Origin: Rickettsiales bacterium | GTDB taxonomy: Bacteria > Pseudomonadota > Alphaproteobacteria > Rs-D84 | Length of the DNA stretch: 64,000 nucleotides | Assembly: GCA_031262525.1 (NCBI GenBank) | Contig: JAISHM010000006.1 | Location: 7,880-71,879 of the forward strand | Direction of reading: 5' to 3' | Shown here: positions 21,093 through 57,060 of the stretch, piece by piece | Numbering within the stretch: the first letter of the stretch is position 1 | Layout: the number at the start of each line of letters is the position of its first letter | Made by a program: the position numbers and the translations under genes | The notes under the pieces: model-generated | The model's input: the letters and a program-made list of their open reading frames with translations, nothing else | Database searches by the model: none | Told to the model about the DNA's origin: nothing

Positions 21093-21125
21093 TACAAAAT
21101 TTCTTTGTTTTATTTGATTTTACTA

Positions 21126-21156
21126 TAAAAATACGCGGTGGGATTTACCGCGTATT
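21126..21156 (-). terminator. rho-independent terminator after secB (palindromic, could act both ways)
   Basis: ATACGCGGT...ACCGCGTAT hairpin flanked by A- and T-runs, starting 2 nt after the secB stop. Confidence 0.6.
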
Positions 21157-21157
21157 T

Positions 21158-21583
21158 TTATTTTTTATTATTTTCTTCATACATTTTTGCAAAATCCACA
21201 GGTTGCATTGCAAACGCTGGGAATCCACTGTCGCCTGTCATACACATAATTATCGCGCGCACCGATGGGAATAATAAATTCGGAATATCTATCAACAATG
21301 TCCGTTTTGTATCTTCTTCGTCTTTCTTTTCTTCTATTTTTACCAATCCGGAATAAACAGATTCAATCATAAAGATAGATTTTTCGTCTGCTTCCAGTTT
21401 GCTGTGTAATTTAACAATTAAATCCACCATAAATACATCATTATCAGCACCCTTTATCTGGATATCCAGATTGATGTCCATTTTTGCAGCACCATTGTCT
21501 TGTTTGAAAAACAATTCTGGGACATTTGGGGACTCAAAAGAAAAATCTTTGAGAAATTGTGAAATCAGTTGAAACTTTGCCAT
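21158..21583 (-). CDS. secB: protein-export chaperone SecB
   Basis: MAKFQLISQFLKDFSFESPNVPELF... is a typical SecB N-terminus. AGGAG lies upstream of the ATG at 21583; the ORF-track TTG at 21634 is less likely. Confidence 0.85.
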   Translation of the reverse strand: MAKFQLISQFLKDFSFESPNVPELFFKQDNGAAKMDINLDIQIKGADNDVFMVDLIVKLHSKLEADEKSIFMIESVYSGLVKIEEKKDEEDTKRTLLIDIPNLLFPSVRAIIMCMTGDSGFPAFAMQPVDFAKMYEENNKK

Positions 21584-21645
21584 TAAAAAACTCCTTTGTT
21601 TATGATAATATAACACATAAAGATTAAATTTCAAGAGAGGATATA

Positions 21646-22731
21646 ATGAAAATAAATATCTGTGTCGTTTTGTCTGTTTTAACCCTGTTATTTATGGCGG
21701 GCTGCGGGGATTTAACCGAAACACGTGATTATCGCACTGGGGATTCGGCGCAAATCCCATCAAACCTTAAAAAAGTATCATATTCTAATGTTCCTGGCTG
21801 GGACGAAGACGACCATCGGTATGCGCTGGCGGCATTTCGCAATACCTGTGCGGCGCGGTTGCAATATCGGGGGCGTGTTGTGCCAGATAAACAATTACTG
21901 GATGAGAAATGTCAAATTTTACCATCTGCGTCTATATCACAAAGCGGTGCAAAAAAATGGTTTATGGAAAACTTTGCCCCATATCAGGTTTTTGATGATA
22001 GTGGTAAAAAGACAGGGACATATACGGGATATTATTCGCCAGTGATTGACGCCTGTACACATAAAACAGACAAATGTAATGAACCACTGCTGGGGATTCC
22101 AACAAACGGGCAAACTTTCAAGGGAATTCCAAAGAAAACAATTGTGCAAAACAATATCGGGCGCGTTCTGTATTGGGCAAACATTGTTGATGTCCAAAAT
22201 ATGCAAATTCAGGGCAGCGGAATGTTAAAATTGGAAAATGGCGATTTGGTAAAATTAAACTTTGCGGCGGTAAATGATATGCCTTTTCGTTCAATTGGTG
22301 ACCAATTAAAACAACGCGGTATTCGCCCAGATGGTGGTTATTCTTCGGACGCAGTTTGGACATACTTGAAAAAAAATCCATCACTGGCGCGTGATGTGAT
22401 TTATAATAATCCGCGATATGTTTATTTTAAGCCTGCGCAAAGCCACGATGTTATTGGAAAAATCGGAACGCCGCTGACAAAAATTCGCAGTATTGCAATG
22501 GACGATTCAATTTATACAATTGGATTACCGGTGTTTATAAATACTAATCTGTCTGTTGACGGGCGTAAGTTTCGTCGTTTAATGGTTGCCCAAGATACTG
22601 GCAGTGCGATACGCGGCTGGATTCGCGCCGACATATTTTTCGGCAGCGGGATTGATGCTTATAAATATGCGCACGGACAACATGCCCAGGGCGAAATATA
22701 TATTCTGATACCAAAACCATATGGAAAATAA
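21646..22731 (+). CDS. mltA: membrane-bound lytic murein transglycosylase A
   Basis: Lipobox LFMAGC. MltA-type GYYSPV region. C-terminal 3D domain AQDTGSAIRG..RADIFFGSG. Confidence 0.8.
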   Translation: MKINICVVLSVLTLLFMAGCGDLTETRDYRTGDSAQIPSNLKKVSYSNVPGWDEDDHRYALAAFRNTCAARLQYRGRVVPDKQLLDEKCQILPSASISQSGAKKWFMENFAPYQVFDDSGKKTGTYTGYYSPVIDACTHKTDKCNEPLLGIPTNGQTFKGIPKKTIVQNNIGRVLYWANIVDVQNMQIQGSGMLKLENGDLVKLNFAAVNDMPFRSIGDQLKQRGIRPDGGYSSDAVWTYLKKNPSLARDVIYNNPRYVYFKPAQSHDVIGKIGTPLTKIRSIAMDDSIYTIGLPVFINTNLSVDGRKFRRLMVAQDTGSAIRGWIRADIFFGSGIDAYKYAHGQHAQGEIYILIPKPYGK

Positions 22732-23047
22732 AAAAATAAATTTTACACAACGACGCGGGTATCCCCAAACTATGGGGGCGGTATTTGGTGGATTTTTATC
22801 GTTGTTTGGTGTTCGCGCGGGGGCATCTGATTTGTCAGAGCGATGGGGTGAAATTGTTGGTGATGAGTTATCTAAAATTGCAACATTGTATGGAATTCGC
22901 GCATTAAAAAACAAACAATTTAATATAACTTTGCGTGCGATAAACCCGGCGGCAAAAACAGAATTATCATATAGGTTGCCAGAATTTTCTGTGAAAATAA
23001 ATCATTACTTTGGATATGATGCGGTGGCAAAAATTACAATCCGTTAA
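22721..23047 (+). CDS. DUF721/DciA-like protein
   Basis: 108 aa. W.EIVGDEL...L.L.A.NPAAKTELSY...IN..FG fits the DUF721 pattern. Confidence 0.55.
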   Translation: MENKKINFTQRRGYPQTMGAVFGGFLSLFGVRAGASDLSERWGEIVGDELSKIATLYGIRALKNKQFNITLRAINPAAKTELSYRLPEFSVKINHYFGYDAVAKITIR

Positions 23048-23519
23048 ATCGCGACATATTGCTGTGCGCCAGGGCAATTGCGATTGCGTCCGCTTCGTCA
23101 GCGGTTTTTGGGGTTGCCGCGGGCAGTAAAATTTTTATCATTTTTGCAACCTGTGTTTTATCCGCATGGCCGGCCGCAGAAATTGCTTTTTTAATTTTAT
23201 TTGGTTCATATTCATAGACTGGGATTTTTTTTATCCCAACCGCAACCATCGCCGCCGCGCGCGCATGCCCCAACAATAATGTGCTGGTCGGATTTTTATT
23301 TACAAATGTAATTTCAATTGCACACTCATTTGGCGCAAAGTCATCACAAATTTTTGATACCGAATTAAAAATTTCTGATAATCTGTCCGCCAAGGATAAT
23401 TTTTGATTTGGCAAAACAACCCCGCTGGCAATATATTCGCGCGAACTGCCATTCATATCAACAATTGCCCAGCCAGTGTGTAAAAGTCCAGGGTCAATAC
23501 CGATTATTCTTCTTTTCAT
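23034..23519 (-). CDS. ruvC: crossover junction endodeoxyribonuclease RuvC
   Basis: IIGIDPGLLHTGWAIVD N-terminus and C-terminal DEADAIAIALAH. Confidence 0.92.
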   Translation of the reverse strand: MKRRIIGIDPGLLHTGWAIVDMNGSSREYIASGVVLPNQKLSLADRLSEIFNSVSKICDDFAPNECAIEITFVNKNPTSTLLLGHARAAAMVAVGIKKIPVYEYEPNKIKKAISAAGHADKTQVAKMIKILLPAATPKTADEADAIAIALAHSNMSRFNGL

Positions 23520-23569
23520 ATTAAAAGAGTACCCAATAAAGTATAATCTGTAAAGAAAAAATACTGATT

Positions 23570-23593
23570 AAACAAAACGGCGCATTGCGCCGC
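23570..23593 (-). terminator. rho-independent terminator after ligase paralog B
   Basis: On the minus strand, CGGCGC-AAT-GCGCCG is followed by TTTTGTTT. Confidence 0.6.
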
Positions 23594-23599
23594 TTTGTC

Positions 23600-25180
23600 T
23601 TACTCTTTACGATTTGGGTAATCGCCTGCTTGCAATTTTTCACGCACCACATGGTGTTTGATTTTTTGTGTTCCAGACAATGGTAATTCATCTGTTGTCA
23701 TCGCAAAGTGCGTAACCCATTTATAACTGGCTACTTTTTTATTTGCATGCATAATTGACTTCATCAGTTTATCCATCGTTGTGCCGTTTTCTACTTGAAA
23801 TACGCCGTATGATACGGTTTTATTTTTTACACGATGTTCAAACACTGCGACATTTTTTACGAATGGGATTTTCATAAACAAGGCCTCTAATTCATCTGGA
23901 TAAACATTTTTTCCAGAATCCAAAACAATCACTTGTTTTTGCCGTCCATGAAAATGCAATTCGCCGTTTTTATCCATTGATACCAGGTCGCCTGTGTTAA
24001 AAAATCCGCGTTCATCAAAGGCATTTTGATTAGCCTCGTCATTGGCTAAATATCCGCCAAAAACCTGATGCCCGCGCAACCATAAAACACCGATACCTTC
24101 TTCGTTTTTGCATCTGATTTCAACCTCGTTATTAGTAATCGGTCCGCCAAACGCAAATGGTTTTCTGTGTTTTACTGGTTTGGAAATACAGATTGGTCCA
24201 ACCGTTTCTGTCAGTCCGTATCCCTGGATAAAGGTCAATCCCAGACGTTCGTAAAATGTTTCAACCTCTGGCTTTACCGCAGCGCCACCTGCGACCAACA
24301 GGCGCGCACGACCACCAAATACTTTCAATACTGGTTCTTGAATTTTGCGCAATAAAAATCCTAATCCCAGTTTTTGGAAAATATGTCCGTATTTCAGAAC
24401 AAACGATGCCAACCACCATATTTTCTTTTCTTTCAGAGTAGTTATAATTTTATTGCGGAATACTTCCCATAAACGTGGGACCGCTGGAATAATTTGCGGG
24501 CGGTATTTTGCAAAGTCCGACAAAATATCCTTTGGATTGACAGTCGGTTGTAATAAAACATTTGCGCGATAGTGTATAGTCGCCAGAATTTCTACCGCAA
24601 ACCCAAACACATGATACATTGGTAAAAATCCATATAGCGTATCACCACGATTGAGCCACGCACTCATATCATCCAGGGATTCTGCACATTCCACCAAATT
24701 ATAGTGTGTCAGTGGAACAATTTTTGGCACGCCGGTCGTTCCCGATGTAAAGGATAATGTCGCGATATCTTCGGATGATACAGACGCAACCTTTGGATAA
24801 GTTTTTGGTTTTTCATCTGTTTCGGTAATATCATAAAACTTAAACTTTGCTGATTTATAGAAAAAACTTTTTTCCGCCAAAACCAATTTTGTTTTGGTCA
24901 GTTTTGTCATATTATCATATTCAAACGGGGTTAAATTTGTATCCAGCAATAACACCTGGGCCCCCAGATACCATATTGCAAATAATGATAATGGAAATGA
25001 CGGAATGTTATGTGCCAGAACACCAACAACACTACCCTGTTTTACCCCCAACGATTCCAATGTTGCGGCGCGATTTTTCACCATTGTGAAAAAGTTTGCG
25101 TATGTTATATTTTCACGCGTCAGGAACAATTCGTTCGGGGCGTCTGCCACCGCCTGTTCCAGATATTTATACATATTCAT
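23600..25180 (-). CDS. AMP-dependent synthetase/ligase (acyl-CoA synthetase-like), paralog B
   Basis: 526 aa with TSGTTGVPK, GYGLTE, TGDLVS and SGKN. Collinear with 12666-14228, roughly half of residues identical by eye. Confidence 0.8.
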   Translation of the reverse strand: MNMYKYLEQAVADAPNELFLTRENITYANFFTMVKNRAATLESLGVKQGSVVGVLAHNIPSFPLSLFAIWYLGAQVLLLDTNLTPFEYDNMTKLTKTKLVLAEKSFFYKSAKFKFYDITETDEKPKTYPKVASVSSEDIATLSFTSGTTGVPKIVPLTHYNLVECAESLDDMSAWLNRGDTLYGFLPMYHVFGFAVEILATIHYRANVLLQPTVNPKDILSDFAKYRPQIIPAVPRLWEVFRNKIITTLKEKKIWWLASFVLKYGHIFQKLGLGFLLRKIQEPVLKVFGGRARLLVAGGAAVKPEVETFYERLGLTFIQGYGLTETVGPICISKPVKHRKPFAFGGPITNNEVEIRCKNEEGIGVLWLRGHQVFGGYLANDEANQNAFDERGFFNTGDLVSMDKNGELHFHGRQKQVIVLDSGKNVYPDELEALFMKIPFVKNVAVFEHRVKNKTVSYGVFQVENGTTMDKLMKSIMHANKKVASYKWVTHFAMTTDELPLSGTQKIKHHVVREKLQAGDYPNRKE

Positions 25181-25278
25181 TTTGTTTTACCTTTACTTGT
25201 ATTCGCGATTTGCGAATAAAATTCCTTTGTTTTTTATATTGAACGGGTCTATTATAATAAAAATAAAAGGAATATCAA

Positions 25279-26052
25279 ATGAAGATTTTAACATTAAATA
25301 TCAACTCTATCCGCGCGCATATTGAATCATTTATCGCTATTTTGGAAAGCGGTGAATATGATACAATTTTGGTCCAGGAATTAAAAGTTGAAACAAATTT
25401 ATTTCCATCTATTTTATTTGACCATCTGGGGTATAATTTTCGCGTTTTTGGGCAAAAATCGTGGAATGGGGTCGCAGTGTTTTCTAAATTTTCTATCGAG
25501 GATTTTGCGCGCGGACTGCCAAATTATCCAGATACTAACGCCCGTATGACCGAATGTGTGATTGACGGAAAATTGCGCGTGATAAATGTTTATATGCCAA
25601 ATGGAGAAGCGATAGATAGCCCAAAATTCCCATATAAAATTGAATGGATGAATCATTTTACAAAACATATTGCTCCATTATTAAATAGTGACGAGCCTGT
25701 CATAATCGGCGGAGATTTTAATGTTGCAATAACGGATGCAGACATTTGGAATCCAAAACAATACGAAGGCAGCAGTATTTCCGCACCCGCCGCACGCGAA
25801 ATTATGCAAAAATGGTTGAATGATGGGTGGTCTGATTCTTATCGGCGTTTTAATCCAGATGCTACAAAGCCTTGGACTTGGATTGGGTACCGCGGAAATT
25901 CTTTGCAAAAAAATGATGGATTGCGCCTTGATTATTTTCTGGCAAATTATGCGGCGCAAAAACTGATTAAAAGTTGCGACATTGACCCACGACCACGAAA
26001 CGCTATAAAACCAACCGACCATTTGGGATTGTTTTTGGAGATTGGTGGGTAG
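25279..26052 (+). CDS. xth: exodeoxyribonuclease III
   Basis: 257 aa. MKILTLNINSIRA, QELK, GGDFNV and DHLG motifs of the EEP/Xth family. The last codons and the TAG stop lie in the repeat arm. Confidence 0.9.
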   Translation: MKILTLNINSIRAHIESFIAILESGEYDTILVQELKVETNLFPSILFDHLGYNFRVFGQKSWNGVAVFSKFSIEDFARGLPNYPDTNARMTECVIDGKLRVINVYMPNGEAIDSPKFPYKIEWMNHFTKHIAPLLNSDEPVIIGGDFNVAITDADIWNPKQYEGSSISAPAAREIMQKWLNDGWSDSYRRFNPDATKPWTWIGYRGNSLQKNDGLRLDYFLANYAAQKLIKSCDIDPRPRNAIKPTDHLGLFLEIGG

Positions 26053-26130
26053 TGCTGGTGGGTAGTGCTTGTGGTTAGTGATGGTGGTTAGTGCTTAGTG
26101 GCTGGTAAATTTGTCCATTATAAAGGACAA
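26042..26130. repeat. palindromic repeat element: left arm made of about five 13-nt units (GGTGGNTAGTGNT) plus core 1
   Basis: GGTGGGTAGTGCT GGTGGGTAGTGCT TGTGGTTAGTGAT GGTGGTTAGTGCT TAGTGGCTGGTAA, then the core TTGTCCATTATAAAGGACAA (26111-26130). Confidence 0.85.
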
Positions 26131-26234
26131 GTTTTTTAATCTGTAAATTTGTTATTTATAATCTTATAAACAAGAACAAAATTTTCATCATACTGGCACA
26201 GGATTGCAAGAACCGGTATCCAGGAATTTTATTG

Positions 26235-26254
26235 TTGTCCATTATAAAGGACAA
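26235..26254. repeat. isolated copy of the 20-bp palindromic core
   Basis: TTGTCCATTATAAAGGACAA is identical to the cores at 26111 and 26843. Confidence 0.8.
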
Positions 26255-26298
26255 CGATATCCTTGTTTATACAACTATTACTTATCGTGTATTATAAC

Positions 26299-26369
26299 TT
26301 GTCCTTTATAAAGGACACCCAACTTCTAATTACCAATACTAATCCATAGCACTATTCACCAACACTAAT
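26299..26369. repeat. palindromic repeat element: core 3 plus C/A-rich right arm
   Basis: TTGTCCTTTATAAAGGACA followed by CCCAACTTCTAATTACCAATACTAATCCATAGCACTATTCACCAACACTAATT. The arm encodes the last five residues (ISVGE) and the stop of tsaE on the minus strand. Confidence 0.8.
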
Positions 26370-26759
26370 TCGTAATTTTCGCCCCAAACCAAATTCGGTT
26401 ATATAAATATGAATTGTGTTTTCGGGTAAAAATTCGGACGCAATTTCTGGCCATTCAATCAGAGTAATATCATTTGCGATGGCGTGTTGCATACCAATCT
26501 CGGTCAATTCGGAAATATCTGAAATCCTGTATAAATCAAAGTGAGAAATTCCATCATAATTTTGCACGATTGTAAATGTCGGACTGGGGACAATCGTGTC
26601 CGCACCGCGCAACTCTTGGATAATCGCGCGCGCGATTTCTGATTTTCCCATACCCAAATCCCCGTGCAAGGCAACCACCACCGGCGCACACAGAGTTCGC
26701 GCAAATCCCCGCGCCCAATTTTTTGTTGATTCAATATCTTCCAAAATAACTTCTTTCAT
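26352..26759 (-). CDS. tsaE: tRNA t6A37 biosynthesis ATPase TsaE
   Basis: 135 aa. LHGDLGMGKSEIARAI P-loop and SPTFTIV, typical of YjeE/TsaE. Confidence 0.85.
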   Translation of the reverse strand: MKEVILEDIESTKNWARGFARTLCAPVVVALHGDLGMGKSEIARAIIQELRGADTIVPSPTFTIVQNYDGISHFDLYRISDISELTEIGMQHAIANDITLIEWPEIASEFLPENTIHIYITEFGLGRKLRISVGE

Positions 26760-26842
26760 TATATAACCCTAATCCATAATCTATATTATTATTATTATCA
26801 TTATTATAATTATTACATTTATTATAATTCAGTATTTCTTAC

Positions 26843-26899
26843 TTGTCCATTATAAAGGACAACCAACACTAATCCCCAGCACCAGCCACTAACACTAAT
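26843..26899. repeat. palindromic repeat element: core plus right arm
   Basis: TTGTCCATTATAAAGGACAA then CCAACACTAATCCCCAGCACCAGCCACTAACACTAA. The left side (26761-26842) is an AT-rich TAAT/TATT tract rather than a G/T arm. Confidence 0.8.
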
Positions 26900-26905
26900 T
26901 TATGC

Positions 26906-28915
26906 TTACTCTAATAACAACAAATCATCTTCCATTTGTTTAATTTGGTCGCGCAGTTCGGTTGCGTGCTCGAACTCTAAATTTTCTGCCAACTTAAACA
27001 TTTTTTTGCGCAATGTTTTGATTTCTTTCTCCAATGTTCCGCGGTCCAAAACCCCACCATTTTTATTATATACAAACTGACGCTTTTTATCTGTTTTTTC
27101 ATCCTTATCGCCGACTTCGGCAAATATGGATTTTATAATTGTCTTTGGAACTATGCCGTGTTTTTTATTATAAGCCATTTGTATAGAACGACGGCGTGCG
27201 GTCTCGTCAATGGCCGTCTGCATAGATTCCGTTATTTTATCCGCATACATAATTACGCGTCCGTTTGCGTTTCGCGCCGCACGCCCAATCGTCTGAATCA
27301 GCGAACGAGCGCTGCGTAAAAAACCTTCCTTGTCAGCGTCCATAATCGCAACCAATTCGCATTCGGGGACATCCAGTCCTTCGCGCAGTAAATTTATTCC
27401 GACCAAAACATCAAACTTTCCCATACGCAATTCACGCAGTAATTCAATGCGTTCCAGAGTTTCGATGTCCGAGTGTAAATATCGCGCACGCACCCCGTGT
27501 TCGGTTAAATAATCGGTCAATTGCTCTGCCATTTTTTTTGTTAGGGTTGTAACCAAAACGCGCCCCGATATTTTCTTTATATTTTCCAATAAATCATCAA
27601 CTTGATTTTTTGTTGGGTGAATTTCAATTTCTGGGTCCAACAGACCAGTTGGACGAATAACCTGTTCGGCGACAATGCCACCCGCCGCATTCATTTCCCA
27701 ATCTGCGGGTGTGGCGGACACAAATATAGTTTGTGGTCGCATCGCATCCCATTCATCAAAAGACAACGGACGATTGTCTGCGCAACTTGGTAGACGAAAA
27801 CCATATTCAGATAATGACTTTTTTCGCGCCGCGTCGCCTTTACCCATTGCGCCAATTTGCGGCACGGTCACATGACTTTCATCAACGAATAATATAGCAT
27901 CCGTGGGCAGATATTCAAACAAAGTTGGTGGTGGTTCCCCGGGTTTTCGTCCAGACAAATACCTGGAATAATTTTCAATTCCGCGACAAATTCCGGTTGA
28001 TTCCATCATTTCAATGTCAAAACCTGTGCGCTCGCGCAGGCGCTGTTCTTCCACATATTTTTGCGCGTCCTTGAAAAAATCCAATCGCGATGCTAAATCT
28101 TTTTTTATTTCGCCGATTGCTTGTAATACGGTTGGCATTGGCGTCGCATAATGGGTATTTGGATAAATCGCAATTCGGTCCAACTTTTTTAATTTACCAC
28201 CGGTCAGAGTATCAAATTCCCAAATTTCTTCCACCATATCGCCAAAGAAAGAAACCTTCCACCCGCGGTCCATAGAGTGTGATGGAAAAATATCCAAAGT
28301 ATCGCCACGAACACGAAAATCCCCGCGCCCGAACGCTGTATCGTTTCTTTCGTATTGGATATTTACCAACCCACGCATAATTTCTTTGATATTAGTTTTG
28401 TCCCCAACCGACACAATCATTTTCATCTTCATATATTGTTCGGGGGAACCCATACCATAAATAGACGATACCGATGACACAACAATAACATCGCGCTCTT
28501 CCAGCATTGCGCGCGTTGCCGAGTGTCTCATTCGGTCCAGTTGGTCGTTGATTGACGCGTCCTTGTCAATATAGGTGTCTGTTGTTGGCATATACGCCTC
28601 GGGCTGATAATAATCATAATAAGAAACAAAGTATTCTACATGATTTTCTGGGAAAAATGATTTCATTTCTGTATAAAGTTGTGCCGCCAAAATCTTATTG
28701 GGCGCCATAATCAGGGTGGGGCGCCCCAATTCCGCGATAACATTCGCCATTGTAAAAGTCTTACCCGTGCCGGTCGCCCCCAGTAAGACCTGATTTCGTT
28801 GTCCTTGCTGGACCCCAACAACCAAATCACGAATTGCATCGGGCTGGTCCCCACTGGGAATATAATCACTGCTAAGATTAAATATTTTTTTATTCACCAA
28901 TTTAATATAATTCAT
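26906..28915 (-). CDS. uvrB: excinuclease ABC subunit B
   Basis: [28 protein letters not shown] Walker A, DESH box, and C-terminal UVR domain ([11 protein letters not shown]). The start is set at MNYIKLV (28915); the 66-aa upstream extension in the ORF track is hydrophobic and unlike UvrB. Confidence 0.93.
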
Positions 28916-28919
28916 TATA

Positions 28920-31454
28920 ATGAAATTGCAAGAGAGAGAATATATGAAGTCGTCTTCACAACATATTGCTATTTTCTGCGTGTTAGCAGTGATTTTATCA
29001 CTGGTAATCGCATGGCTGATTGTGCCCCCATTATTTAATATGAATGGATTGCGTCCGTATTTTGCACAAACTATTATGAACCAGACCGGTACCCCAATAA
29101 AAATAAATGGCAAAATTCATATCAGCACGATTGGTAGAATCAGTGTGGTTGCGCATGATATAACAACACAAAACGGGACCATAGAGTCGGTATCTTTTTC
29201 TATCCCAATGTCAAAAATTTTTGATATAAGAAATGCACCTGTATCTGGGGATATTTATGTTCGTGGCGCAAATATGGAAATAGAAAATTTGACCCCCATA
29301 CGAATAAATCAAAAAATAAACATTTCTGATTCAGTTATAAATTTTATGGGAATGAATTATCATATTCTGAATGGAACACTTGAAAACGGCAGTTTTTCTG
29401 GTGGTGTTCGCACAGACCAACATAAATATGTTGTAAATTCCAATGGTTCGGAATTTTTTGTTATAAACAAGAATGAGGGGTTATCCATAAACGGAACTTT
29501 TCTATCAAACGGCGGTGTGCATGCAACACTTAAAATAGACACAGATGATGTAAATACTTGGTTTAATTTTTTCGAGCCTGATATTTGGGAACATGTGAAT
29601 ATGAGTATGAATATTGACTGGGACGGGAAATATGGATTTGTATTTTCTGATATTACTGGAAATGTTGGTGGGGATGATTTCAATGGACGCATAGTTTTAC
29701 CAGAAAATGGAATTCGCGAAATGTCTTTTTCTTCGGATTCTATTGACTTTGACCTGAATTTTTTGCGGACGCAAAAATTATTCTTGAAAAATGCTTCGTT
29801 GGATTTAGACCTGAATGGAAATTTGCGTTTTAATAATAAGTTTTTTAATTATGTTCGGTTGCACGCGGTTGGCGATGACAAGACCGAAAAAATTAAAAGT
29901 TTGGAATTTGGTGGCGCAAAAATCAGCGGAAAAATCAGCGGGGAAATTTTATCAAATGGTGATGAAAACCTAAATCTGGAATTTTCACGCGCAGGCGCCG
30001 ATGTTTATTGTAAATTACGCAAAACAAAGAATCTGTGGGCGTGTGATGAATATAAATACAAAGACAAAGAAATATCAGCCGTTGGAACATTGGTTGTGGA
30101 TTCTGAAAAATTTTCTGGGACGATGACATCTGAAAATGATATGCCGCGTGATTTTAATTTTGTAAAATTTACAGAATTTACAAAAACTGATGGTGAAATT
30201 ATTTTCCGTTTTCGTAATATGGGTGGAATTGCAAAAATACAAAAGAATAAAGTCAGTATTACTTATAATTTTGTAAATGATACGAATCTGAATTGGTTGT
30301 ATCCAAACAAATTTCCTTTTCTGCCAAACCAAATGACTGATGAACTGGGTGATATTGTTATTGGCGGAGATGATATTTCTTTTTTACCAAAATCAAAAAA
30401 GTGGGAACTGACAACATCTGGGAATTATTTTTATTTAACAGGGGACAGCGTAATCAGTTTTATAAAAAACTTTGCGCCGGGCGCAGATTTAAGTTTTCTA
30501 AATGATTTTAGTTTCGAAATGTCTGGTAATTTTAATAAAACATCAATATCTGATTTAGAATTACGAATTGCAAATCATATATTTCGTGGTCGCGTGTCTG
30601 ATAATAATTTAACACTGATAACCGAAACACTGGATATGGATATTTTCGCAAATAAAAATTATTTTACAAAATATGATGAAAATCAGTTTTTACATAATGC
30701 ACCAATTTTAATCCCATTTGATTTTACCAATATAAAAATTTCTCTGTCGGCTGGTTCTGTTATGTTCAGCGGGGAAAAGTATGAAAATTTTATATGGACA
30801 TTGGCAAATAACCAAATGAATTTTTCAATCAGCGATACAACGCGTGGCAGTGTCCTGGCCACAATAATAAAAAACAAATTTAATTATGATATTTCTGTGC
30901 GGTTAAATCGTTTTGCATTTACCAGAAAATTATTACCAGAAACAATGCCGTTAAATATAACCGAATCAGTGGCAACCGGTGATGCAAAAATTTCCAGCAA
31001 TGGACGAATTGCGTATGATTTTTGGAATAATATGTCGGGTCCTGTGAATTTGACTTTTGATGGGGGAAAACTGATTGGAATCGGCACGGATTATTTGTAT
31101 GCGAATGCATTAAATTTAACGCCGGTAAATACAGATGATATTTTAACAACTGCTTTGTCTGGTGGCACAACAATAATAAAAAGTATGAACTTTTCTGGTG
31201 AGTATAAGGGTGGAAAATTTATAACTACATCTCCATTAAAAATCATTGCGCGTTTTGCAACAATCACTGGGGATTTGGAGATAGATGACAATAAAATGAC
31301 TGCTAACTTAAAAGTTTTGTTCAATGGTATATCGCCGTCTCCATCGTCAATACCGATGTCGATATTTTCCGATGGGACGCGCGATTATTCATTTGATAAT
31401 ATATTGGTAAATTTCAGTAGTGATTATCTGATAAAATTTATGAACAAATCATAA
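28920..31454 (+). CDS. AsmA-family-like envelope protein
   Basis: About 840 aa. N-terminal membrane anchor [20 protein letters not shown] is followed by a long beta-rich region, as in AsmA/TamB-like proteins. The alternative start is 28944. Confidence 0.5.
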
Positions 31455-31462
31455 ATGCAAAA

Positions 31463-32449
31463 TTATAATTCTGTTGGTAATGACATTCCTCTGGCTTCTA
31501 TGTATATGCGTTCCGAGCCTGTACCCTTTCTGATTTCTAGATAGGTATTGGTCATATTTCCGTTATTTACTGCTATATATGTTGATACCTCACCGGATGC
31601 TGTTCCTGTTGTTTCCCGTGTTATATTTACATGATAATTAGCATCTGCGAATGGCATTGGAAATGTCCAACCAAGTTTTGTATGTGTTGTGCTATTAAAC
31701 CTTATACCTTGTTCAACCCATCCAGATTTATATCTGCGATACCAAACATAACCACTGGTGGTATTAGATGCAGATGTTTTAACAACATAATCTATGTATT
31801 CATTGGATAATGTTGGTGATTTTGATACAATCAGGTTTGTATCAACAGGTTCGTGTAATTCATCTTTGGTGGCATAGTTTGTTAAATCTGGTATATCGGC
31901 GGAAAGAGTTTCACCATTCATGGTAAGTCCGGTGCCTATTTTAACACATCCCTTTACAGATGCACTGGCGGTAGGGATATTAAATTCGGCAATTGCGGTT
32001 GCGGCTGCCAAAATATCCTGGGGCATACCCAGTTTTTCCCAATCTGAAAAATTATTTAATTTATTACGAAATTCTTTGACCAATTCCACCAAATAATTAA
32101 AATCGGTATTCAGATGATTTGGTTGAATCATACCTGCTTGTGGATAACAAATTGGACGAGTTAAAGATAATTCGCGGTATATTTTGATTATCGTCCCTGA
32201 CGCTGGGGCATTGTTAAAAACAATCCTTCCCCCCCAATTTGATATAATCCCAATATCATTTGCAGCGCGTTGTTCTTCTGATTCGTATTCTGGCTCGGTT
32301 GTTGATTTTTGGACAGAATAATTGTCCAAGGTCTGTAAAATTCCATCAATGGAAATTTTTATATCTGATTCTTGGAACCATTGAAAATTAAAATTGTATT
32401 CGTGTGTCTGCCCGTCCCCTGAAAAGGTTATTTGATTTGTGTTTTCCAT
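31463..32449 (-). CDS. phage tail fibre-like protein (orphan)
   Basis: 328 aa. The N-terminus ITFSGDGQTHEYNFNFQWFQESDIKISIDG fits the tail-fibre N-domain pattern. ASVKGCVKIGTGLTMNGETLS is a fibre repeat. The C-terminus GYVWYRRYKSGWVEQG...FPMPFADANYHVNIT is like gp53-type tail-fibre tips. Confidence 0.6.
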   Translation of the reverse strand: MENTNQITFSGDGQTHEYNFNFQWFQESDIKISIDGILQTLDNYSVQKSTTEPEYESEEQRAANDIGIISNWGGRIVFNNAPASGTIIKIYRELSLTRPICYPQAGMIQPNHLNTDFNYLVELVKEFRNKLNNFSDWEKLGMPQDILAAATAIAEFNIPTASASVKGCVKIGTGLTMNGETLSADIPDLTNYATKDELHEPVDTNLIVSKSPTLSNEYIDYVVKTSASNTTSGYVWYRRYKSGWVEQGIRFNSTTHTKLGWTFPMPFADANYHVNITRETTGTASGEVSTYIAVNNGNMTNTYLEIRKGTGSERIYIEARGMSLPTEL

Positions 32450-32487: not shown

Positions 32488-32511
32488 GTCATACTAGTAT
32501 GCTAGTATGAC
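32488..32511. promoter_or_regulatory. operator-like palindrome upstream of the tail-fibre gene
   Basis: GTCATACTAG-TATG-CTAGTATGAC has perfect 10-bp inverted arms and also contains a CTAGTATG tandem direct repeat. It lies 39 bp upstream of the start codon at 32449. Confidence 0.35.
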
Positions 32512-32721
32512 TATATGGTTATAAATTTGGTAATGATTGTAAATTTTAGTTATTAAAAATAAAAAAAATCGCGAAGTGCGACCATTTTTTTGTTTGTATC
32601 AGTATATCAAAAACAGCAACAAAAATCAAGATATTTTTATTTCGCAGTGCAAAACCCAACACGTATAGAACCCTTCGTTGCGCGTTGCGCAACTTTTACG
32701 GGTTCTCATCTCCTGAATCCG

Positions 32722-32752
32722 ACACAAAAATAAAATCGGGACACGCCCGATT
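32722..32752 (-). terminator. rho-independent terminator after tRNA-Lys
   Basis: On the minus strand, ATCGGGCGTGTCCCGAT hairpin followed by TTTTATTTTT. Confidence 0.7.
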
Positions 32753-32759
32753 TAATTTT

Positions 32760-32836
32760 TGGTGGGGTTGCAGGGATTCGAACCCTGGACCCAATGATTA
32801 AAAGTCATTTGCTCTAGCCAACTGAGCTACAACCCC
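32760..32836 (-). tRNA. tRNA-Lys (TTT)
   Basis: GGGGTTG/CAACCCC acceptor, GCTC/GAGC D-stem, AATGA/TCATT anticodon stem, loop CTTTTAA, CAGGG/CCCTG T-stem, TTCGAAT, encoded ACCA. Confidence 0.9.
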
Positions 32837-45820: not shown

Positions 45821-45834
45821 AATTTATATGTAAT

Positions 45835-45869
45835 AAAAAACAAACCCCGGTTTTCGGGGTTTGTTTTTT
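45835..45869. terminator. bidirectional rho-independent terminator between recA and typA
   Basis: AAAAAACAAACCCCG-GTTTT-CGGGGTTTGTTTTTT is a perfect extended hairpin with A- and T-runs on both sides. Confidence 0.8.
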
Positions 45870-47691
45870 ATTTCTTTGCTTTTTTACGCATTGTTGAATC
45901 CAATTCCCTTTTTCGCAATCTGATTGTGTTTGGTGTAACCTCTACCAATTCATCATCTTGGATATAGGATAATGCTTCTTCCAGACTAATCCGACGCGGT
46001 GGCGCCAAGAATAATTTTTCATCCGCCGTCACAGAACGCATATTGGTCAATTCCTTGCCCTTTATTGGATTTACTTCCAGGTCATTTTCTTTGCTGTGTT
46101 CGCCGATAATCATACCAGAATAAACCAATGTTTGTGGTTCAATAAATAATGTGCCGCGTGGTTGCAAGTTAAACAGCGCGTATGTCGCCGCACCACCATT
46201 TTCCATAGAAACCAAAACACCCGGGCGATAGGTTTCAATATCACCACGATAAAAATCATATTTATCAAAGATACGATTCATTATACCTGTGCCGCGTGTG
46301 TCTGTGCGAAACTCTGATAAATATCCAATCAGTCCCCGACTTGGCGCCGAAAATACAATTCGCGATTTACCAACGCCCGATGGTTTCATCTCAATAATCA
46401 TACCCTTGCGCTTGGTCATTTTTTCAATAACAACGCCGCTGTATTCATCATCAACATCAATCACAACATCTTCGATTGGTTCCAGTTTGTTTCCATTTTC
46501 ATCTTCGTGGAACACAACGCGCGGACGCGAAACTGATAATTCAAAACCCTCGCGGCGCATGGTTTCAATCAAAATCCCCAGTTGTAATTCGCCACGACCA
46601 GAAACCTCGAACGCTTCGTTATTCGCGCTTTGCACCACGCGCAGCGCAATGTTTGTTTCTGCTTCCTTGAATAATCTTTCGCCAATCATTCGACTGGTCA
46701 ATTTTTTCCCACCGCTCTTTCCCGCCAGTGGCGAAGTATTTACAAAAAATGTCATTGTCAGGGTCGGCGGGTCAATCGGCAATGCAGGAATTGGTGCAGA
46801 AACAGATGGGTCACACAGGGTATCAGCCACTGTTGCCTTGCTGAATCCAGCAACAACAACAATATCGCCGGCAGACGCGCTGTCCAGTGAAATTTTTTCA
46901 ACACCGCGATGTTCAATAATTTTTGTGATTTTTGCGTTTTCAACAAAATCACCATTCATATTTATTGCTTTTACACTTTGCCCAACACGGACACTGCCAC
47001 TTTCAATTCGTCCAGTCAGTATTCGTCCAACATATGGGTCCGCTTCTAGCGTTGTCGCCAACATCTTAAAAGGTCCATCCGTATCCAGTCGTCCCGGTAC
47101 GCAATCAGGCGCCGGCACATGGTCAATAATCAGTTGAAACAAAGGTGTTAAATCCTTGGGTTCATCTGTCAATTCACGCGTCGCCCAACCATCGCGACCC
47201 ACCGCATAGACATACGGGAAATCCAATTGCGCATCTGTCGCGCCCAATTTATCAAACAGGTCAAATGTTTCGGATAATACTTCGTCAGGACGGGCATCAT
47301 GCCTGTCCACCTTGTTTATACAAACAATAGGACGCAGTCCCAGTTTTAACGCCTTACCCAATACAAATTTTGTTTGGGGCAGGGGACCCTCGGAACTATC
47401 TACCAATAATACAACACCATCAACCATGGATAAAATTCGTTCCACTTCTCCGCCAAAGTCCGCGTGCCCAGGGGTATCCACAATGTTGATTTTATAATCA
47501 CGCCACACGACCGATGTCGGTTTTGCAGAAATTGTGATTCCGCGTTCGCGTTCCAAATCCCCGCTGTCCATAACGCGGTCGGCGACCTTTTCATTTTCAC
47601 GAAACGAGCCCGCTTGTTTTAACATATTATCAACCAAGGTTGTTTTGCCGTGGTCAACGTGCGCGATAATCGCAATGTTTCTGATTTTCAT
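45868..47691 (-). CDS. typA: translational GTPase TypA/BipA
   Basis: 607 aa. IRNIAIIAHVDHGKTTLVD, DTPGHADFGGEVER and NKVDR GTPase motifs with BipA-type C-terminal domains. Confidence 0.95.
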   Translation of the reverse strand: MKIRNIAIIAHVDHGKTTLVDNMLKQAGSFRENEKVADRVMDSGDLERERGITISAKPTSVVWRDYKINIVDTPGHADFGGEVERILSMVDGVVLLVDSSEGPLPQTKFVLGKALKLGLRPIVCINKVDRHDARPDEVLSETFDLFDKLGATDAQLDFPYVYAVGRDGWATRELTDEPKDLTPLFQLIIDHVPAPDCVPGRLDTDGPFKMLATTLEADPYVGRILTGRIESGSVRVGQSVKAINMNGDFVENAKITKIIEHRGVEKISLDSASAGDIVVVAGFSKATVADTLCDPSVSAPIPALPIDPPTLTMTFFVNTSPLAGKSGGKKLTSRMIGERLFKEAETNIALRVVQSANNEAFEVSGRGELQLGILIETMRREGFELSVSRPRVVFHEDENGNKLEPIEDVVIDVDDEYSGVVIEKMTKRKGMIIEMKPSGVGKSRIVFSAPSRGLIGYLSEFRTDTRGTGIMNRIFDKYDFYRGDIETYRPGVLVSMENGGAATYALFNLQPRGTLFIEPQTLVYSGMIIGEHSKENDLEVNPIKGKELTNMRSVTADEKLFLAPPRRISLEEALSYIQDDELVEVTPNTIRLRKRELDSTMRKKAKK

Positions 47692-55678: not shown

Positions 55679-56491
55679 ATGCAATCGGGTCTTTATCTTG
55701 TTGGCACACCAATTGGAAATCTGGGGGATATGTCGGCGCGCGCAATCGAAACTTTGCGTGATGTTGATTTAATTGCGTGCGAAGATACCCGCGTGTTTGG
55801 GAAATTGGCGTCGCACTTTGATATAAAAACACGACGTGTTGCCTTTCATGACCATAACGAGCAAAAATCTGTTGATAAAATTATGGAAATGTTGCGGGAT
55901 AAAAATATGTCGGTGGCAGTGGTGTCTGATGCGGGAATGCCGGGCATAGCAGACCCAGGTTTTCGTATTGTTCGAGCATGTCGTGATGCGGGGATTCCAG
56001 TATTTGCTGTGCCGGGGCCAACCGCGGTTGCAACGGCAGTGGCGATATCTGGATTTGCGACAAACAGATTTACTTTTTGTAATTTTTTGCCACCGACAAA
56101 AAATGCGCGCCTGGCGAAGTTGCGCAATGACAATCGGTTGCGTCATACATTGGTTTATTACGAAAGCCCAAATCGTATTATGGATACAATCGCGGATTTT
56201 GCAGCGATTATGCCAGAACGAAAAATTGCGATTATTCGTGAAATAACAAAAATCTATGAACAGGCAATAATTGGTTATCCCGCTGAATTGGTTGGTATTG
56301 AACCCCCGCGTGGGGAAATAGTTATTGTTGTAGAAGGCGGGGCAGAGCCCAATATGACAGATGAAGAATTAAAAGCATTGGTAAATGATGTGGTTGCAGC
56401 CGGACATAAAACCAAAGATGCCGCCGAAATTATCGCATCGCATGCGGGGATTTCGCGGTCTGATGCTTATGAAATGGTGTTAAAAAAATGA
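55679..56491 (+). CDS. rsmI: 16S rRNA (cytidine1402-2'-O)-methyltransferase
   Basis: LYLVGTPIGNLGDMSARAIETLRDVDLIACEDTR is the tetrapyrrole-methylase-fold RsmI signature. Confidence 0.9.
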   Translation: MQSGLYLVGTPIGNLGDMSARAIETLRDVDLIACEDTRVFGKLASHFDIKTRRVAFHDHNEQKSVDKIMEMLRDKNMSVAVVSDAGMPGIADPGFRIVRACRDAGIPVFAVPGPTAVATAVAISGFATNRFTFCNFLPPTKNARLAKLRNDNRLRHTLVYYESPNRIMDTIADFAAIMPERKIAIIREITKIYEQAIIGYPAELVGIEPPRGEIVIVVEGGAEPNMTDEELKALVNDVVAAGHKTKDAAEIIASHAGISRSDAYEMVLKK

Positions 56492-57057
56492 ATATAAAAT
56501 TTTTGGGCAGTTTTGAAAAAGTGCAAAGTTTGCCAAAAACTCATTTTGATGAGTATGCTTTTGTCGGGCGCAGTAATGTTGGTAAGTCATCGTTGATAAA
56601 TGCGATTGCGGGCGCGGTCATTGCACGCACATCAAAGACACCAGGACGGACACAATCATTAAATTTATTTAACTTTGGCGACCGACTGGCAATTATGGAT
56701 TTGCCAGGGTATGGGTACGCAAAAATTTCCAAAGAAACCGAAGATATGTGGCTGGATAGATTACAAGATTATTTAATAAATCGCGACCAATTAAAATTAT
56801 TGTTCTTGCTGATAGATGCGCGTCATGAATTAAAAAAGTCAGATAAACTGGTTATGGATTTTTGTGATGCAAACGCAATTCGCTATCAAATAATTTTAAC
56901 AAAAATAGATAAATCAAACAAAAAAATAATTGCCGAGATAAAAAATGAAATTGGTGCAAAGCCTCGACCTGCGGCAACGACGGATATTTTGGAAACATCT
57001 GCAAATAAAAACATAGGTATTGAATATATAAAAAAGGTCTTAGGTCTTAGGTCATAG
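56488..57057 (+). CDS. engB: ribosome biogenesis GTPase EngB/YsxC
   Basis: GRSNVGKSSLINAI G1, DLPGYGYA G3, and TKIDK G4. Confidence 0.9.
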   Translation: MNIKFLGSFEKVQSLPKTHFDEYAFVGRSNVGKSSLINAIAGAVIARTSKTPGRTQSLNLFNFGDRLAIMDLPGYGYAKISKETEDMWLDRLQDYLINRDQLKLLFLLIDARHELKKSDKLVMDFCDANAIRYQIILTKIDKSNKKIIAEIKNEIGAKPRPAATTDILETSANKNIGIEYIKKVLGLRS

Positions 57058-57060
57058 GGC

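Follow-up and report, generated by a model that had tools for sequence, protein, structure and literature searches.

Few parts of bacterial genomes are as poorly understood as short interspersed palindromes such as REP, BIME, NIME, RPE, and SDR. The palindromic elements of Rickettsia (RPE), reportedly described by Ogata et al. in 2000, are said to be selfish-looking DNA with a consensus of 100 to 150 bp that can reside in frame inside genes, and the SDR4-6 units of Nostoc punctiforme, conserved over approximately 21 to 27 nucleotides (nt), were reportedly described by Elhai et al. in 2008 as apparently mobile and nested in hairpins and in tandem heptamer repeats (STRR). Integron attC sites measure 55 to 141 bp and carry R''/R' boxes (RYYYAAC/GTTRRRY), while the pdif sites of Acinetobacter are 28-bp dif sites. 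In Neisseria, dRS3 has been proposed to be a recombinase site and is a known target of phage integration (PMC1797815; PMC11893778), with approximately half of its copies being targets of the Ssn nuclease (PMC11893778). Finally, the GGGAATC heptamers of Xanthomonas occur in tandem and in convergent (inverted) pairs, mostly in intergenic DNA and on average 28 nt from the 3' end of the upstream open reading frame (ORF), and their arrays, like the cyanobacterial STRR, vary in length and sequence between close species (PMC4692102). Here, we describe a palindromic repeat family in a 64,000-nt stretch of a Rickettsiales bacterium (GenBank assembly GCA_031262525.1, contig JAISHM010000006.1, positions 7,880 to 71,879), referred to below, in its full length, as the window. 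The family is real and nonrandom and, as far as checked, undescribed, and it has two unusual traits: its heptamer arms are hypervariable although the sites they occupy are conserved, and its apex is conserved over 20 bp and is found at the borders of gene cassettes as well. We see an even chance that this 20-bp core is a recombination or insertion site nested in the fast-evolving heptamer hairpins of a lineage-specific mosaic family.

The palindromic core and its occurrence in relatives

A pattern search for TTGTCC-WTTATAAW-GGACAA returned five copies in the window, against 0.03 expected by chance; a count of at least five was reached in none of 100 shuffles of the window, and a scan of all 64 kb showed the core family to be the sole recurrent 18-mer near-palindrome. 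The first-pass annotation had listed four perfect-arm palindromes within 820 bp and a fifth at 1197. All five were found, with exact matches to the TTGTCCWTTATAAWGGACAA pattern starting at 1197, 26111, 26235, and 26843, but the copy at 26299 has an imperfect arm, with one mismatch (...GGACAC, the last base being C instead of A). The perfection of the palindrome was also overstated: the core combines 6-bp inverted ends with TTATAA in the middle and two W positions, and while the outer 6 bp (TTGTCC/GGACAA) and TTATAA are symmetric, most copies are asymmetric at the W positions. These read A..A in three copies and T..T, the A..A form reversed, at 1197, which leaves the copy at 26299 (T..A) as the only internally symmetric core of the window. 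Since palindromy in register barely extends past the 20-mer (0.37 at positions +/-2 and +/-3, versus 0.28 with shuffled partners), we treat the core as a discrete unit.

Scanning one genome per species for the core revealed it in at least seven related metagenome-assembled genomes (MAGs), which form an Alphaproteobacteria cluster, and the matches listed from a metagenome scan were mostly termite-gut contigs; the isolate codes of the MAGs (Nt197, Emb289, and Lab288) denote higher-termite hindgut samples (Hervé et al. 2020; PMC7024585). Some of the relatives' loci (designated by L and a number) are 65 to 73% identical to parts of the window, and an identical 4.7-kb Logan contig exists. With many more copies in relatives, the core is not confined to the window loci, and the family is indeed dispersed, as had been proposed. 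Whether it is best described as a two-layered, lineage-specific family of mosaic palindromic elements of termite-gut Alphaproteobacteria (the Rickettsiales-labelled MAGs) is, in our judgment, evenly balanced. Related 18-mers, including TGTCTATTATAATAGACA, TGTCCAATATATTGGACA, and TGTCTACTATAGTAGACA, share loci with the core. Most of them are fully symmetric through the center, the 8 central bases of the core co-vary symmetrically, and symmetric variants are more common than their single-change intermediates. Hybrid cores, such as TGTCCAATATATTAGACA, occur as well.

Cores as borders of cassettes and rearrangements

Among 34 inter-core segments of up to 3 kb, approximately 19 hold a single ORF that fills 76 to 99% of the segment. 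The GC content of such segments is 0.32 to 0.39 (host-gene segments in L139 and L205 excepted), versus 0.44 to 0.50 for whole array-bearing loci, and the Pfam names of their ORFs include an orphan HigA-like antitoxin, chorismate mutase, a zeta-toxin-like kinase, a GDSL hydrolase, Nmad3, an inositol-monophosphatase family protein, and a serine hydrolase. The HigA-like cassette was found in at least five unrelated contexts, namely, after grpE (L130), der (L160), and rplY (L197), as well as in L188 and L077; in the alignment of these copies, similarity starts at the left core and extends no further than the right core, and the DNA on the outside is unrelated. In L130, matching heptamer arms flank three cassettes (Larm-core-ORF-core-ORF-core-ORF-core-Rarm), while in L098 two arms enclose two cores and another 40-nt palindrome, and L144 contains tandem 73-nt core-plus-spacer units.

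The order of parts in the window block at 26042-26370 is arm - core - 104 nt - core - 44 nt - core - arm, and, judged by this order, the block is a miniature, noncoding version of the cassette layout seen in relatives. Since the relatives show what the pieces are, we read the block as one hairpin with an expanded apex; the earlier description of 26042-26369 as a single hairpin with its halves separated by inserted material thus has its counterpart in loci with the same layout and whole genes between the arms (L130). As an aside, the ends of cassette arrays appear to be formed by conserved modules (L157 2023-2293, L222 1780-2030, L160 1457-1719, and L175; L197, L193, and L020 at approximately 6630). 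The left module, of approximately 260 nt, has repeated CTACATA motifs and ends in a core, and the right module, AAAAAGACATATACCGGACATAGAAATT, has a canonical terminator behind it; L197 contains a second, directly repeated occurrence of the right-module sequence 70 nt ahead of the first core (832-858, 1865-1890).

Compared with the nearest relatives, the xth/tsaE junction is a synteny breakpoint: there, tsaE adjoins the AMP-binding gene, and xth adjoins secB and mltA. In L020, a core lies at the opposite end of the AMP-binding-xth block. More broadly, the gene order of window positions 21158-29113 is rearranged relative to that of L236, L238, and L239, with the AMP-binding-xth block having different neighbors on both sides, and the breakpoints around this block coincide with hairpins or cores of the relatives or of the window. 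The tsaE gene itself, located between the cores at 26299 and 26843, was considered as a mobile cassette and ruled out, the synteny from uvrB to tsaE being ancestral in L231.

Heptamer arms at orthologous sites

In the relatives, the arm units differ from copy to copy (tagtcgc, aatcgtg, gtgcaag, gcgaaac, ggcacta, aggtaat, tttgagg, and ctaacaa), and despite these differences, the left and right arms stay mirror complements. A period of 7 was found in 38 of the 42 significant arms (above the 99th percentile of the positional null). Among the collected loci, arms occur without a core and cores occur without arms.

The contrast between arms and core is seen most directly in uvrC. The L205 copy of this gene contains an in-frame element (1018-1155) that has a core and gcgaaac arms, and its linker between two conserved blocks measures 45 amino acids (aa), versus 13 aa in PDB entry 3c65. 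At the exact same codon position, L233, L234, and L235 contain hairpins with other units (cagttag; caaagag/cagatag; and aggagac) and other apices, none of which has the TGTCC core, so that only one of the four relatives carries it. The inserts measure 138, 117, 105, and 138 nt, all multiples of 3, and the two that were folded (L205 and L233) score 6.6 to 6.7 standard deviations better than shuffles. In the uvrC-efp spacer, arm units and apices likewise differ between genomes. By these comparisons, the arms are a separate, fast-evolving layer, with only the 20-bp core being conserved, and the idea of a fixed-sequence unit of the RPE/REP/MITE type had to be given up, since the arms vary from copy to copy and between orthologous sites. 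Changes of unit under a constant period of 7 and constant pairing would be explained by replication slippage within the arrays, together with template-switch copying of changes between the arms, a mechanism suggested by the known behavior of quasipalindromes.

The same data bear on an alternative that we consider rather improbable, in which the whole arm-plus-core unit is a nonautonomous transposon (MITE- or REPIN-like) moved by a transposase encoded elsewhere, with the arm types being subfamilies. Such a transposon could account for the sharing of arm type and inner module by loci of one genome (a gtgcagg family in L073, L112, L192, L195, and L205 and a tagtcgc family in L056, L139, and L206), for the TAGTG/GGTGG arm type common to all three window loci, and for the one in-frame insertion in uvrC. 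However, with arm units that differ between genomes at the same codon, in-place turnover fits better than repeated independent hits, and a transposing unit does not fit well with arms that lack a core or cores that lack arms. No target-site duplication was noticed at the borders of the copy around 1197, by inspection only, and no RAYT, IS200, or IS110-like gene turned up in the collected loci, a weak test by a scan aimed at tyrosine and serine recombinases.

Variable in-frame inserts are also present in housekeeping proteins of the clade, at recurrent hot spots in uvrC (before LIIVDGG; P0005, P0006, P0012, P0015, and P0022) and in xth (at WLD-[insert]-GWxDCYR; P0128, P0141, P0146, P0150, and P0160-P0162). 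The inserted peptides look like translated palindromic repeats, as known from RPE.

For the xth locus of the window, comparison with the nearest xth relatives (75% aa identity) gave a similar picture. At the orthologous 3' end, L236 has a decayed hairpin of TAGAGAA/TAGTGAA units, the unit type of the window, without a core; L238 has a lone TTAACTA array and a canonical terminator; and L239 and L237 have canonical terminators only. Since orthologous uvrC, uvrC-efp, and xth sites show hairpins without the core, the heptamer hairpin is the older resident structure there and the core an addition at its apex.

Heptamer hairpins, then, sit where other relatives have ordinary bidirectional terminators, and nearly all solitary copies lie directly after the 3' end of a gene, often between convergent genes, with none seen clearly between divergent genes. 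These positions are what one would expect of structural 3'-end elements, i.e., bidirectional terminators or mRNA-stabilizing hairpins with a REP-like function, in which the core is conserved as the favored hairpin tip or as the target of a host factor that binds RNA or DNA, and cassettes only look bracketed because each gene has its own terminator. As an account of the whole family we consider this unlikely, while for the arms, a role as terminator or stabilizer stays a serious rival. Both strands fold strongly, and in a loose consensus scan the cores at 26111 and 26235 were terminator-like on the plus strand, but those at 26299, 26843, and 1197 were not, and most cores have no U tract. Termination inside uvrC, moreover, would be harmful; the loop of a hairpin needs no palindrome, yet the 8 central bases of the core co-vary; and cassette homology breaks at cores in unrelated contexts. 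Canonical GC-rich, bidirectional intrinsic terminators occur at three sites of the window (45832-45872, 21125-21161, and 32733-32753), which indicates that it uses ordinary terminators at other junctions; an example of the canonical type is AATAAAAAACAAACCCCG-N5-CGGGGTTTGTTTTTTATT after recA. Since, in addition, many convergent gene pairs overlap without any hairpin, the elements appear to be sporadic extras.

Proposed mechanism and evidence against it

In the mechanism that we propose, the first layer is a long hairpin with inverted tandem-heptamer arrays as its arms, mostly situated just past gene ends and sometimes in frame inside genes, and the second layer is the dyad-symmetric core (TTGTCC-W-TTATAA-W-GGACAA), one of several small palindromes found at hairpin apices. 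DNA would enter at the core and end up bracketed by two cores, such that n modules yield n+1 cores, with modules ranging from the 44- to 104-nt noncoding spacers of the window to the single accessory genes of relatives. Accordingly worded for the window, 26042-26370 would be one hairpin with an apex grown to three or four cores by insertion events, 1153-1260 an intact, unexpanded single-core copy, and 26843-26900 a half copy left by rearrangement. As likely side effects, the host may have gained stable stem-loops where xth, tsaE, uvrB, ORF 411-1148, and ORF 1253-1831 end, new stop codons from an arm rich in TAG and TGA, and, for tsaE, a hexamer resembling a -35 element. Going further, we tentatively raise the possibility, to which we give less than even weight, that the core is the attachment site of an unrecognized gene-cassette exchange system of termite-gut Alphaproteobacteria, operating where no integron integrase lies close by. 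Small modules in circular or linear form, as short as a 50-nt spacer or as long as one accessory gene, would then integrate at hairpin-tip cores throughout the chromosome, including inside essential genes, and recombination would also drive local inversions, such as that at the xth/tsaE junction.

Several points weigh against the core being a recombination site, a reading that we derive from architecture and would neither favor nor disfavor. Insertion at the core is suggested by the arrangement of parts rather than observed as filled and empty alleles in near-identical strains, and inter-gene cores could instead be terminators or promoters that belong to individual genes and arrived with them by horizontal transfer. 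The spacers of the window (26131-26234 and 26255-26298), like the AT-rich repeats upstream of tsaE, had no relatives in a blastn search against all collected loci and the window, and hence their origin as inserted modules is not demonstrated. Each hybrid core is also one point mutation away from a symmetric parent, and crossover is therefore not proven by the hybrids. Furthermore, the locus sets were gathered by searching for the core itself, which biases the counts of core types and contexts. Lastly, the searches linked no recombinase, transposase, or nuclease to the core: scanning approximately 0.85 Mb of loci for the tyrosine box II and serine N-terminus motifs, a weak test, gave a negative result, and a Pfam scan of ten candidate window proteins revealed no integrase or transposase.

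Over all loci, the recombinase motif scan found only Xer-like genes, in Patescibacteria contigs, and no tyrosine recombinase near the cassette arrays. No RAYT was present among the ten annotated window proteins, and the scan of the loci was aimed at tyrosine and serine recombinases. A single small, Ssn-like GIY-YIG gene was seen in the collected loci (L205 2420-2842), with the GC-rich hairpin CACTCCTGCGTAGGCAGGAGTG, and not the core, on both sides. This hairpin resembles the NTS/SRM consensus, and a reverse transcriptase gene with the IGNLCSQ motif typical of diversity-generating retroelements lies nearby (L205 4678-5694). An Ssn/NTS origin of the core was ruled out, as the sole Ssn-like gene has its own GC-rich flanking hairpins and the core is unlike the consensus.

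Database searches agreed with the earlier remark that the sequence was not recognized. The whole window had no Rfam match at the gathering threshold, and at an E value of ≤1, positions 25900-27000 gave only a chance match to mir-2001 (21.9 bits, versus a gathering score of 74). A blastn search with 26036-26375 found nothing among PLSDB plasmids and INPHARED phages; the 20-mer matched only one of 2.9 million IMG/VR contigs, from which no link to phages follows; and no occurrence of the exact core motif strings was found in a text search of 8 million papers.

Elements of the window

The copy with a single core, element 1, begins 5 nt past the stop codon of ORF 411-1148. Its left arm (1153-1196) consists of G/T-rich heptamers (GTGGTTA) and a short AT linker, with a period of 7 at 1161-1176 according to Tandem Repeats Finder (TRF), and pairs in the predicted fold with the right arm (1217-1260), the C/A-rich complement, which contains CACTAAC units at 1233-1252. 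Between the arms, which are 79% complementary over 33 nt, lies the exactly matching core of the T..T form (TTGTCCTTTATAATGGACAA, 1197-1216). The stop codon of the minus-strand ORF 1253-1831 is located inside the right arm. The region from 1140 to 1265 folds at -50.9 kcal/mol (z of -7.8 versus shuffles).

Element 2 starts with a left arm at 26042-26110 of approximately four 13-nt units (TGGTGGGTAGTGC). These are 6+7 compounds, where element 1 has plain 7-nt units, and while the 13-nt period had been noted correctly, TRF gives 4.1 copies (26043-26095, 87% match) instead of five. The first unit provides the stop codon of xth (TAG inside GGTGGGTAG). Core 1 (26111-26130, A..A form) is followed by GTTTTTT, scores as terminator-like on the plus strand, and is separated by the unique, AT-rich spacer 1 (26131-26234; 104 nt, 27% GC) from core 2 (26235-26254, A..A form), which lies within a local hairpin with an 11-bp stem (26230-26259). 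Spacer 1 contains a decayed core-like palindrome at 26149-26176, the fourth such element of the block. After the likewise unique and AT-rich spacer 2 (26255-26298; 44 nt, 26% GC) come core 3 (26299-26318, T..A form, one mismatch) and the C/A-rich complementary right arm (26319-26370), which on the minus strand encodes the last five codons of tsaE (ISVGE) and its stop. The overlap of arms with coding DNA was therefore described correctly for xth and tsaE, but for ORF 1253-1831, it is limited to the stop and does not include the last codons. The arms are 74% complementary over 42 nt, with 6 of the 11 mismatches being G:T. This surplus (6 G:T versus 1 A:C in element 2, none in element 1) was considered as a sign of RNA-level selection and dismissed, as C-to-T decay explains it equally well. 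The region from 26036 to 26375 is predicted to form one giant hairpin (-112.8 kcal/mol, z of -7.8), and the opposite strands of both elements fold nearly as strongly; the folding of full elements that the first-pass annotation had proposed as a check thus yielded strong hairpins for both.

Core 4 (26843-26862, A..A form) is located between the 3' end of uvrB and the 5' end of tsaE and is followed by a half element with a C/A-rich arm only (26863-26900), which is 82% identical to 26332-26370 and, read on the minus strand, is the G/T-rich arm immediately past the uvrB stop. Right arms at all three loci (1217-1260, 26319-26370, and 26863-26900) are, as first noted, the C/A-rich complement of G/T-rich left arms. 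A core plus right arm is directly repeated on either side of tsaE (26292-26370 versus 26836-26900, 82 to 88% identical). The half-site TGGACA of core 4 forms the -35 element of a promoter-like site directed at tsaE (TGGACA-N17-TATAAT, 11 of 12 matches), with the TATAAT being supplied by an AT-only tandem repeat (TATTATAAT, five copies) at 26784-26829, between core 4 and the tsaE start.

Two further observations concern other parts of the window. A lone degenerate heptamer array (GGTCTTA GGTCTTA GGTCATA GGGCATG GGTATAA, 57035-57069) lies at the end of ORF 56488-57057, which has its TAG stop inside the array; neither an inverted partner nor a core was seen there. Downstream of tRNA-Lys, ORF 31463-32449 has weak tail-fiber matches (Phage_T7_tail at the N terminus and Gp53-like at the C terminus, both below the cutoff), and just upstream of it is a short ACTAGTATG repeat or palindrome (listed together with 32491-32517 and 32760-32836) that resembles the TTCTAGTATACTAGAA modules adjoining cores in L098 and L063.

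An identical 18-mer in Patescibacteria

An identical 18-mer, TGTCCTTTATAAAGGACA, lies 10 to 500 nt downstream of an xth homologue in approximately 40 loci of Patescibacteria, also called CPR (L182, L065, L198, L068, L093, L096, L224, L081, L200, L043, L007, L017, L212, L165, L087, and approximately 25 more). It forms the tip of a hairpin with variable flanks and is followed by a DnaA-box-like site, TTATCCACA; by a promoter-like sequence built from the same half-site, TGTCCTTTACA-N17-TAGAAT; and by a conserved, probable noncoding RNA (GGCCCAGAGAGGGCGAGCAGG...CCCCTTAAAGAG) without an Rfam match. TAAAGGACA is the putative binding sequence of a factor at this locus. While the window cores coincide with it in lying just past xth, the Patescibacteria 18-mer looks like a separate, once-per-genome, operator-like site and was set aside as a link to the window family.

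This finding bears on the idea, to our minds very improbable, that a dimeric DNA-binding protein uses the 20-mer as its operator and that the genomic copies make up a regulon or nucleoid-organizing set, with the HigA-like helix-turn-helix protein of the most common cassette or the factor that seems to use the Patescibacteria 18-mer as candidates. An operator would suit the dyad symmetry through the center and the symmetric variants, the Patescibacteria 18-mer stands upstream of a promoter-like sequence, and core 4 overlaps the promoter-like site of tsaE; the HigA-like gene, too, is repeatedly flanked by cores. Against this stands the location of most copies at gene 3' ends rather than at promoters, and a regulon would leave the split arms, the n+1 arrays, and the tandem core-spacer units unexplained. 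Moreover, a HigA-like homologue was not among the listed or annotated window ORFs or in six-frame motif scans of the window, although none of these searches used the HigA sequence itself as a query.

Comparison with known systems

In this family, two layers that tend to be mixed up in short interspersed palindromes can be told apart: a hairpin changing so fast that orthologous sites keep only period and pairing and a conserved 20-bp site that would mark where DNA was gained. If the core is indeed a recombination site, it would offer reduced, host-associated genomes a compact, dispersed alternative to integrons for accessory genes and provide a tractable model for how NIME-like mosaics form. 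The heptamer arms amount to a natural experiment on slippage and inter-arm conversion, including in essential coding sequences, where arrays must stay in frame. For annotation, the elements account for unusual features of housekeeping proteins in these MAGs, namely, odd C-terminal extensions, stop codons borrowed from the repeats, and inserts that keep the frame.

Judged by those defining features that were tested, the elements do not belong to RPE, REP/REPIN, MITE, attC, or SRM, nor, by a covariance-model search, to any Rfam family. The likeness to RPE that the first-pass annotation had pointed out extends to behavior: here, too, palindromic DNA of a Rickettsiales-type lineage overlaps gene ends and tolerates in-frame residence, in uvrC and xth homologues, with the L205 uvrC copy as the case in a relative. 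It does not extend to membership, as there is no 100- to 150-bp consensus; conservation is limited to 20 bp, the arms consist of hypervariable tandem repeats that differ between copies and orthologous sites, and none of the window copies lies inside a gene, all being intergenic or overlapping a gene end. The doublet of REP/REPIN, with a conserved, imperfect palindrome of 20 to 40 nt as its arms and a variable loop, is reversed here, the apex being conserved and the arms variable, and instead of the conserved terminal inverted repeats and target-site duplication of a MITE, we found termini of variable tandem repeats and, by inspection of element 1, no duplication.

With attC and pdif, the family shares promoter-poor, single-gene accessory cassettes (toxin-antitoxin parts, small enzymes) that are split by a recurring palindromic site, with the same cassette occurring in different arrays. 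The site, however, is 20 bp long and has no R''/R' boxes (by inspection, GTTGTCC and GGACAAC fail the R/Y pattern and order), no intI or adjacent xer gene was seen in the loci, and the arrays are tiny and scattered; attC and dif were ruled out as the identity of the core on sequence and geometry. The SDR4-6 of Nostoc punctiforme, which together with dRS3/NIME arrays are the closest analogues, are cyanobacterial and unrelated in sequence; no enzyme is known to be associated with them, and SDRs are not known to bracket gene cassettes. A 7-nt tandem period in intergenic DNA, as in STRR, was found in the arms counted above and in the window at 1161-1176 and 1233-1252, as well as within the 13-nt compounds (6+7) at 26043-26095. 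The Xanthomonas heptamers differ from ours in having one G-quadruplex-prone unit genome-wide, versus at least a dozen units per clade that differ at orthologous sites, and in that no conserved apical palindrome has been reported for them (PMC4692102).

As to Ssn-related motifs, which go with a cd10448 GIY-YIG gene that they flank, the core is unlike the SRM/NTS consensus CGTCATTCCCGCG-N3-GCGGGAATC (PMC11893778), and the only Ssn-like gene seen, the small GIY-YIG gene of L205, is flanked by the different hairpin described above. In form, the nearest analogue is dRS3/NIME of Neisseria, even though it shows no sequence similarity, belongs to a different bacterial class, and lacks heptamer-arm hairpins. 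The core does not have the dRS3 sequence (TTGTCC-N8-GGACAA in a Rickettsiales-labelled MAG, versus ATTCCC-N8-GGGAAT in a Neisseria host), but the 20-bp geometry is the same, in that 8 bases, variable or AT-rich, are framed by inverted ends of 6 bp (PMC1797815). The array behavior agrees as well: dRS3 occurs in hundreds of intergenic copies, in arrays that are split by many unrelated 20- to 200-bp spacers and differ between syntenic loci, much like the core arrays described here, and where NIME spacers are noncoding as described, the cores of our family bracket whole single genes, too.

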